Origin: Escherichia coli
GTDB lineage: Bacteria > Pseudomonadota > Gammaproteobacteria > Enterobacterales > Enterobacteriaceae
NCBI RefSeq assembly: GCF_003334255.1
Contig: NZ_QOWU01000031.1
DNA length: 58,190 nt
Reading direction: 5' to 3' (one strand)
Shown in pieces: positions 57,497 to 58,190 of the stretch; within the stretch, counting starts at the first letter, position 1, and each line of letters starts with the position of its first letter. The translations under genes were made by a program, and so were the position numbers. The notes under the pieces are model-generated. The model worked only from the letters and a program-made list of their open reading frames with translations. It made no database searches and had not been told where the DNA came from.

Positions 57497-57840
57497 TTAT
57501 GTTGGCGTTTTCTATTCAGTATAGAAGTCGGAGCGGCTGGGCGAGATGCGGAAGTTCTGGAATGTTTCTTTTTTTTGGTGATGGTGAACTGATGGTGCCT
57601 GAAGCAATTTGGCTACTTTTGCAATGTGACAAGTTATGGCAGTGCTGACTGGTGGCGAAGAATTTTGACGATTGAGTCATGCAGAAAAAAACGGGTTCAG
57701 CTTCAGTTGATTAAATGAGGAGTGAGAAGTCCGAAACAGGACTCACTGTATAAATAAACAGCTATTTTGTTGAGGAAGGGTAAGATAACGGCGGGTGCCT
57801 GAAGCTTTCCGGTTTCAGGTTTACTCTGAGGTCTGGAAAG

Positions 57841-58092
57841 ATGAAGCCCCAGGAGATATTTCTATCAACCCTGGGGCTGCCACTCCAAACCCGAACAATT
57901 TGGATGGTAGTCCCTTCTTCGCATGGAGGCAATATAAACATGCTGACGAAATATGCCCTTGCGGCAGTCATAGTGCTGTGTTTAACGGTGCTGGGATTTA
58001 CGCTTCTGGTCGGAGACTCGCTGTGTGAGTTTACGGTGAAGGAACGTAATATTGAGTTTAAGGCTGTTCTCGCTTACGAACCGAAGAAGTAG
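57841..58092 (+). CDS. mokE: mok-type overlapping leader frame of the hokE locus (modulator of killing)
   Basis: 83-aa frame that contains the whole hokE frame at its 3' end, which is the arrangement of hok/mok loci. Confidence 0.5.
57940..58092 (+). CDS. hokE: Hok-family type I toxin, 50-aa membrane peptide
   Basis: [50 protein letters not shown]: one TM helix plus the conserved Hok C-terminal region with Cys. Located next to ybdK as in K-12. Confidence 0.9.
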
Positions 58093-58113
58093 CCGTTGTG
58101 CGGGGAGTAATCC

Positions 58114-58190
58114 CATAAGCGCTAACTTAAGGGTTGTGGTATTACGCCTGATATGATTTAACGTGCCGATGAATTACTCTCACGATAACT
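58114..58190. mobile_element. Left end of an IS186-like insertion sequence (terminal inverted repeat CATAAGCGCTAACTTAAGGGTTG); the element continues beyond the window
   Basis: The terminal sequence matches my recollection of the IS186 inverted repeat. It sits 22 bp after the hokE stop, next to a G-rich target (GCGGGGAG), in line with the IS186 preference for GC-rich targets. Not verified by search. Confidence 0.55.

Follow-up and report, generated by a model that had tools for sequence, protein, structure and literature searches.

We analysed a stretch of 58,190 nucleotides of Escherichia coli (contig NZ_QOWU01000031.1 of assembly GCF_003334255.1; hereafter the window) and concentrate here on its end, which very probably carries the chromosomal hokE/sokE type I toxin-antitoxin locus in its K-12-type form, interrupted by the insertion sequence (IS) IS186 and with its 3' control element displaced. 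From 57490 to 58190 the window is 100% identical to E. coli K-12 (strain RP437) and to many other strains, and the curated annotation of MG1655 (subtracting 549,896 from its coordinates gives those of the window) names the same bases as the sokE RNA (b4835), the toxin gene hokE (b4415), IS186B, which starts at 58111, and the insL2 gene, with its ATG at 58169. At the locus itself nothing differs from the K-12 arrangement of b4415, b4835 and IS186B, and this arrangement is already known, having been in print since 1999 and being part of the curated MG1655 annotation. What we add concerns above all the distribution of the insertion among E. coli genomes.

The toxin gene has been left intact, as a preliminary description of this DNA, made from its letters alone, had stated. 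The full open reading frame (ORF) of 50 amino acids is present, and its product matches the Pfam family HOK_GEF (PF01848; E = 9.2e-8, residues 5-46) and is the same protein (WP_000956455.1, named HokE by RefSeq) in IS-bearing strains and in strains in which the site is empty. The NCBIfam models HokA and Hok give E-values of 1e-12 and 5e-10 on this peptide, yet their scores fall under the curated cut-offs, so that the assignment of HokE to the family rests on Pfam and on Rfam, whose model RF01794, with a gathering score of 59, recognises the mRNA leader at 84.4 bits (E = 3e-19). On the minus strand Rfam gave some weak microRNA matches (E 0.3-0.7, far under their gathering scores), which were discarded as chance. 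HokE is reported to be toxic when overexpressed (bioRxiv 10.1101/2025.08.07.668861), and the gene should still be able to encode an active peptide. The UACG motif at Tyr46 of hokE (58075-58078) is the reported site of adenosine-to-inosine (A-to-I) editing, which converts this Tyr to Cys (PMC12214031).

Behind the toxin gene lies an IS, as had been proposed. A perfect 23-bp IS186 terminal inverted repeat, CATAAGCGCTAACTTAAGGGTTG, occupies 58114-58136, its last base being the end coordinate given in the preliminary description, and the transposase ORF begins with the ATG at 58169, of which the window holds the first 22 nt. The right end of the element lies outside the window and was read from the identical K-12 locus, where two 23-bp repeats bound an element of 1,339 bp with the 10-bp direct repeat GGAGTAATCC on each side; this K-12 copy encodes a DDE transposase of the IS4 family (133.3 bits with the NCBIfam model NF033592, whose cut-off is 115). 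In the empty-site strains the match to the window stops at 58114, and removal of the IS and of one copy of GGAGTAATCC from the K-12 locus gives the empty-site allele exactly. The distance of 22 bp that had been given between the stop codon and the element is right within the ambiguity of the boundary: the spacer, CCGTTGTGCGGGGAGTAATCC, measures 21 nt if the IS begins at C58114, 22 nt if this C, which is also found in the empty sites, is counted as flank, and 18 nt by the MG1655 boundaries.

The 3' region from which the gene has been cut off is preserved in the empty-site allele of strain HH97, where the stop codon is followed by CCGTTGT GCGGGGA GTAA TCCCCGC ATATCCGGTTGTCAGGTCAGGATGGTA AGGCACCTGC TTTACAC TTTCGCCCG...CGGGCGAA and then by the convergent entD gene. 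Just 3' of the stop, this allele contains a hairpin with a 7-bp stem, GCGGGGA-GTAA-TCCCCGC, and it is in this hairpin that IS186 is inserted; its precise excision would restore GCGGGGAGTAATCCCCGC. The fbi element (AGGCACCUGC in the RNA, AGGCACCTGC in the DNA) is located 53-62 nt past the stop codon of the uninterrupted allele (3156-3165 of the HH97 locus). In the IS-bearing K-12 locus the same element is found at 4505-4514, displaced by 1,349 bp and outside the window. Thus, the proposal that an fbi-like 3' element had been removed or displaced is borne out by the alignment with uninterrupted alleles, and no such element precedes position 58114: the stop codon is separated from the IS by no more than 21-22 nt, which show no complementarity to the mRNA 5' end and contain no substitute fbi. 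A search of the whole IS186 for a substitute also revealed no contiguous complement, the sole contiguous match being the displaced fbi itself. Bulged and interrupted duplexes do form within the GC-rich element with energies like that of the true site; they are non-contiguous and were taken as chance.

The predicted folds of the two alleles diverge accordingly at the 5' end. For the intact allele, whose RNA measures about 400 nt, the minimum free energy is -177.9 kcal/mol (z-score -7.8 against shuffles), and nucleotides 1-10 of this RNA, GCGGGUGCCU (57791-57800), which constitute the tac element, close on AGGCACCUGC with ten pairs at pairing probabilities (P) of 0.94-1.0. In RNAs ending inside the IS, the 5' end has no dominant partner (P <=0.46) and the z-score is -2.7; without fbi, the 5' end pairs partly with the ucb box (P ~0.4), which corresponds to the open, translatable arrangement. 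Pairing of tac with fbi within an mRNA of about 400 nt is therefore present in the uninterrupted alleles and missing from the IS allele, and this loss is a defect of the allele, not a ground to exclude the locus from the hok family. Since the transcribed sequence that precedes the junction does not differ between the window and the uninterrupted HH97 allele, and HokE is the same, the IS is the only lesion.

How such a lesion may act is suggested by the hok/sok system of plasmid R1. In R1, the tac/fbi closure makes the full-length RNA untranslatable and inaccessible to Sok, processing of the 3' end then lets tac pair with ucb, exposing the mok ribosome site and the Sok target, and weakening of a protective 3' stem-loop abolishes toxicity (PMC9841398). 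With R1, hokE shares the Hok/Gef peptide, the leader architecture recognised by Rfam and the same logic of tac/fbi end-pairing, ucb/dcb boxes, transient 5' hairpin and post-stop stem-loop (PMC9841398). It differs from R1 in being chromosomal, in carrying a LexA box upstream and, in the IS allele, in having its fbi separated from the gene by the IS. By its position after the stop codon and upstream of fbi, the protective stem-loop of R1 appears to be the counterpart of the one that IS186 has split.

We propose that in uninterrupted strains the LexA-box promoter would drive the synthesis of an mRNA of about 400 nt, with a GC-rich stem-loop between the stop codon and fbi, and that the pairing of its 5' tac with its 3' fbi would close the hokE RNA into a stable, inert form. 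IS186, with its preference for palindromes of a G-run and a C-run, has entered the loop of this stem-loop and duplicated GGAGTAATCC. The hairpin is thereby split, and its right arm now lies 1,349 bp further downstream together with fbi and the terminal hairpin; the promoter, the LexA box, the leader, sokE and the toxin ORF, all upstream of the IS, are unchanged. Lacking the normal 3' end, the transcript of the IS allele could not promptly close: it would either be open to SokE pairing and degradation while being made or run into the IS, and the locus would lose the stable silent mRNA reservoir on which hok-type regulation depends. We infer from these sequence features that the IS-bearing hokE has lost its function, in the sense that it cannot build this silent pool. 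The same features support the earlier interpretation of the locus as probably inactivated or deregulated, and passages of PMC12214031 and PMC7232551, citing Pedersen & Gerdes 1999, describe hokA, hokC and hokE as 'inactivated by insertion elements'.

Several observations, however, weigh against such a loss. The fbi element is displaced, not deleted, and in the fold of a hypothetical read-through RNA of 1,753 nt the tac-fbi pairing is kept at P ~1; a simple scan of the plus strand of IS186 found no convincing terminator, which makes read-through possible from the sequence. The hokE ORF shows no decay relative to the empty-site alleles, and hokE mRNA exists in K-12, where about 40% of it is A-to-I edited at Tyr46 (PMC12214031), so that the RNA is made despite the IS. 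K-12 hokE shows neither induction by azidothymidine (AZT) nor dependence on lexA (0.47-fold and 0.89-fold; PMC11228462), which is a further caution. Moreover, uninterrupted chromosomal hok loci also failed in post-segregational killing, according to a passage of bioRxiv 10.1101/2025.08.07.668861 that cites Pedersen & Gerdes, so that little of what the locus actually did may have been lost through the IS. It is because of the displaced fbi, the outcome of the terminator scan, the edited mRNA and these other cautions that a deregulated locus still capable of making toxin has to be kept as a live rival, and a neutral insertion as a weaker one.

In the first of these, which we consider unlikely but well worth keeping in view, hokE/sokE would be a working SOS-inducible toxin module in which the IS changes only the 3' untranslated region, HokE being made once LexA no longer represses and SokE is outcompeted. 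The LexA box, leader, sokE and ORF are indeed identical to those of an uninterrupted strain, the unchanged HokE is toxic on expression, its mRNA is detectable and edited in K-12, and the partial pairing of the 5' end with ucb would leave the RNA open; but SokE should at all times be able to pair with a permanently open RNA and bring about its degradation, the stem-loop whose weakening in R1 abolishes toxicity is split here, and the SOS response that this reading demands is not seen with AZT or in its lexA dependence in K-12. That the insertion is neutral we regard as distinctly improbable. RNA polymerase would then read through IS186 to the original 3' end, the long RNA would close by tac-fbi pairing, which would leave the regulation largely as it was, and the IS would be a passenger at a preferred target, as the fold of the 1,753-nt RNA, the absence of a strong plus-strand terminator call in IS186 and the great frequency of the allele (1,873 genomes with the IS in the window orientation, the ORF undecayed) would allow. 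Equilibrium folding of RNAs of 1.7 kb is unreliable, however, and Hok regulation is kinetic: during its synthesis the RNA has to remain closed up to the appearance of fbi, a wait that is 4-5 times longer here; ribosomes on the transposase would disrupt the long-range pairing, the opposite orientation of the IS in 1,056 genomes means that there is no single conserved read-through product, and the published description is 'inactivated'. As for a chance ORF beside a repeat, with neither a hok locus nor an IS junction, nothing speaks for it except the small size of the ORF and the scores under the NCBIfam cut-offs; the Rfam match above the gathering score, the Pfam match, the curated MG1655 annotation of the identical sequence and the precise empty sites with their target duplication already refute it, and we give it practically no credence. 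The loss of the silent mRNA pool through displacement of fbi remains the reading that we prefer.

Table 1. Features of the hokE/sokE locus and of the adjoining IS186 end (window coordinates)
Feature	Position	Strand	Remarks
LexA (SOS) box CTGTATAAATAAACAG	57746-57761	+	CTGT-N8-ACAG, 30-45 nt ahead of the mRNA start
Probable hokE promoter -10 hexamer, TAAGAT	57781-57786	+	assigned by eye; invariant in the alleles
tac element GCGGGTGCCT, hokE mRNA 5' end	57791-57800	+	RF01794 alignment starts at 57793
hok-family mRNA leader	57793-57948	+	Rfam 'sok' RF01794, full-length model match
Inverted repeat CCTGAAGCTTTCCGGTTTCAGG, predicted transient 5' hairpin	57798-57819	+	-13.4 kcal/mol in the first 35 nt
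sokE non-coding RNA (b4835)	57837-57896	-	MG1655 607733-607792, identical sequence
ucb box AGCCCCAGG	57845-57853	+	pairs with dcb in the intact-allele fold; named by analogy with R1 (PMC9841398)
dcb box CCTGGGGCT	57870-57878	+	pairs with ucb, closed leader hairpin; named by analogy with R1 (PMC9841398)
Candidate mokE leader ORF, 62 codons	57904-58092	+	in-frame 12-codon extension of hokE; conserved ATG
hokE toxin ORF, 50 amino acids, intact	57940-58092	+	stop codon TAG at 58090-58092
Left part of the split 3' stem-loop, GCGGGGAGTAATCC	58100-58113	+	last 10 nt (58104-58113) are the left GGAGTAATCC copy
IS186 left end, cut by the window end	58114-58190	+	100% identical to MG1655 IS186B

Several of the elements listed in Table 1 are strictly conserved. 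In an alignment of 11 hokE copies from nine strains, with identities down to ~94%, the LexA box, the TAAGAT hexamer, tac, ucb, dcb, the ATG at 57904 and fbi are all invariant; within these alleles no covariation of tac and fbi was seen, both boxes being invariant. The paralogs keep the same complementarity: hokC has the tac sequence GGGUGCUUGA and a 3' box UCAA(C)GCACCC, a C-to-U change in tac being matched by a G-to-A change in fbi, and hokX has GGGUGC and a downstream GCACCC. The LexA box is a perfect one. Its pattern CTGT-N8-ACAG occurs once in the 58-kb window, where 0.49 matches are expected by chance, so that this single occurrence carries no significance by itself; the published lists of LexA-box genes include hokE, with a heterology index of 4.9 (PMC2826370, PMC11228462). 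TAAGAT lies 5-7 nt upstream of the position that is homologous to the hok mRNA 5' end. A consensus scan of the empty-site and the IS-bearing locus called neither a sigma-70 promoter nor a convincing plus-strand terminator, and the hokE and sokE promoters were therefore taken by eye or from the annotation; for sokE, the promoter-like hexamers TTGCCT (57932-57927) and TACCAT (57909-57904), 17 bp apart, were recognised by eye only.

A hairpin had also been described at 57798-57819, and here the picture is more mixed. The inverted repeat is real and folds within the first 35 nt, but in the equilibrium folds of longer transcripts, including the full-length ones, its bases enter a longer stem with 57825-57840. 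Because of this, the repeat is predicted to be a transient 5' hairpin of the nascent mRNA and not part of its final structure; R1 hok mRNA has an equivalent metastable structure, in which tac pairs with the region immediately downstream (PMC9841398).

For the mok frame, which had likewise been described as intact, the ATG at 57904 is plausible as the sole candidate start, judging from its conservation. Neither this ATG nor the stretch of 36 nt that leads from it to the hokE start codon shows a substitution or an indel in any of the aligned hokE alleles, and the equivalent ATG is present in the hokX alignment too. It has no clear Shine-Dalgarno sequence ahead of it, and the MG1655 annotation lists no mokE. 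In MG1655, mokC is an in-frame extension of hokC with which it shares the stop codon, whereas mok of R1 is read in a frame other than that of hok and has its start 58 nt ahead of it (PMC9841398), unlike the one conserved upstream ATG of hokE, which lies at 36 nt and in frame. An ORF of 83 codons from the ATG at 57841, with a good GAGG 8 nt upstream, was also tried as mokE and rejected, since 1-nt indels in other alleles break its frame.

Two further observations concern this region. The RefSeq pipeline calls a 'hypothetical protein' on the minus strand (57762-57971), antisense to the hokE leader and overlapping sokE; K-12-type strains have it with a frameshift and others in intact form (89-90 amino acids), and it is probably a spurious call. 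In the spacer between ybdK and hokE, about 200 bp upstream, an exact 12-nt copy of the mRNA 5' end, GGTGCCTGAAGC, lies at 57596-57607; a search for the relic of a tandem hok copy at this place found no similarity past 16/19 nt (local E 0.046), and the copy could be such a relic or a product of chance.

Although the hokE-IS186 junction is identical to that of K-12, the window does not come from K-12. Its first 25 kb find their best matches in human commensal strains, and the commensal strain G1/2 has the same hokE-IS arrangement as the window. Since the window differs from K-12 outside the hokE locus, the hokE-IS186 allele is common to other lineages. The distance from the tRNA-Arg(TCT) gene argU (36254-36330) to hokE is 21.6 kb here and about 43 kb in MG1655, and prophage DLP12, which follows argU in K-12, seems to be absent from the window. 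In the allantoin-gene region (16478-16612), two small RNA matches reach the Rfam gathering level, ES036 (16478-16520) and STnc480 (16546-16612).

The distribution of the insertion was assessed with junction-specific queries in 5,426 complete E. coli genomes. The junction between hokE and IS186 in the window orientation was found in 1,873 of them, the same site with IS186 in the opposite orientation in 1,056 (checked in strain AR_0061), and the uninterrupted site in 3,648, counts that are uncorrected for phylogeny and inflated by laboratory derivatives of K-12 and B and by tandem hokE copies; their sum exceeds 5,426 because such tandem copies are common. Many strains have two hokE copies about 500 bp apart (retrieved loci L003, 2440-4690; L009, 837-1411; L011, 852-1428). 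In strain GPEC1405, both copies are interrupted by a separate IS186, the two elements being oppositely oriented; the first copy is a divergent allele with the duplication GGAGCAATCC. Some strains also carry IS150 in the hokE leader, at the dcb box (equivalent to ~57868-57873; L005, 2885-4396; L013, 318-1687), in addition to the post-stop IS186, a second, independent route of disrupting hokE.

A similar scenario occurs in the paralogs. K-12 hokC (gef), with its mokC and sokC, carries IS186A in the homologous hairpin after the stop codon (GCGGGG-N6-CCCCGC), flanked by the 10-bp duplication GGAGTGATCC, and the 3' box that can pair with the 5' end is found beyond the insertion. In contrast to hokE, this locus encodes another paralog (HokC, 50 amino acids), has an annotated mokC leader ORF, where hokE has no annotated mok, and contains an IS that is oriented the other way with respect to its toxin gene. 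In strain KK19-02, hokX, situated in the spacer between cysH and iap/cas3, has its equivalent hairpin, GCGGGGGTAAAACCCCGC, occupied by an IS186 that is flanked by the 10-bp duplication GGGTAAAACC and stands as far from the stop codon as the one in hokE; hokX differs in site and paralog, and its upstream ATG is out of frame and leads to a stop just past the hok ATG. The two IS186-hit paralogs correspond to loci L004 (2386-3898; hokX, beside cysH) and L007 (388-1904; hokC of K-12), and hokX has been reported as IS-inactivated in E. coli B (PMC7232551).

The targets in the three genes are alike: GGGG-AGTAAT-CCCC in hokE, GGGG-AGTGAT-CCCC in hokC and GGGGG-TAAAA-CCCC in hokX. They fit the preference of IS186 for a G-run, a spacer and a C-run that SaiSree et al. 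reportedly described in 2001. The lon promoter is named as a further IS186 hot spot in a passage of PMC3861542. Taken together, the junctions imply at least four or five independent IS186 events. One could go further and propose that the post-stop stem-loop of chromosomal hok genes is a recurrent trap for IS186, entered at the same 10 bp, in both orientations, in tandem hokE copies, in hokC and in hokX, and, more boldly, that in the orientation found in the window the LexA promoter of hokE reads into the transposase gene and couples it to the SOS response; we advance this as a speculation that is more probably wrong than right by a wide measure. If true, the trap would mean that in a large share of the sequenced E. 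coli one or more hok genes are separated from their fbi. K-12 has three IS186 copies, and two of them sit behind hok genes.

Beyond correct annotation, the insertion described here matters little, and what it adds to the known arrangement is modest, namely the population picture in which the post-stop hairpin of hokE, and of its paralogs too, has repeatedly been an IS186 target, in both orientations. It has a practical side for work on hokE in the SOS response, persistence or RNA editing that uses strains of the K-12 or B type, in which the native 3' regulatory region is missing at the locus. In about two thirds of the complete genomes an uninterrupted 3' region of hokE is found at least once, and natural, isogenic-like pairs in which the role of a chromosomal fbi could be tested therefore exist within E. 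coli.

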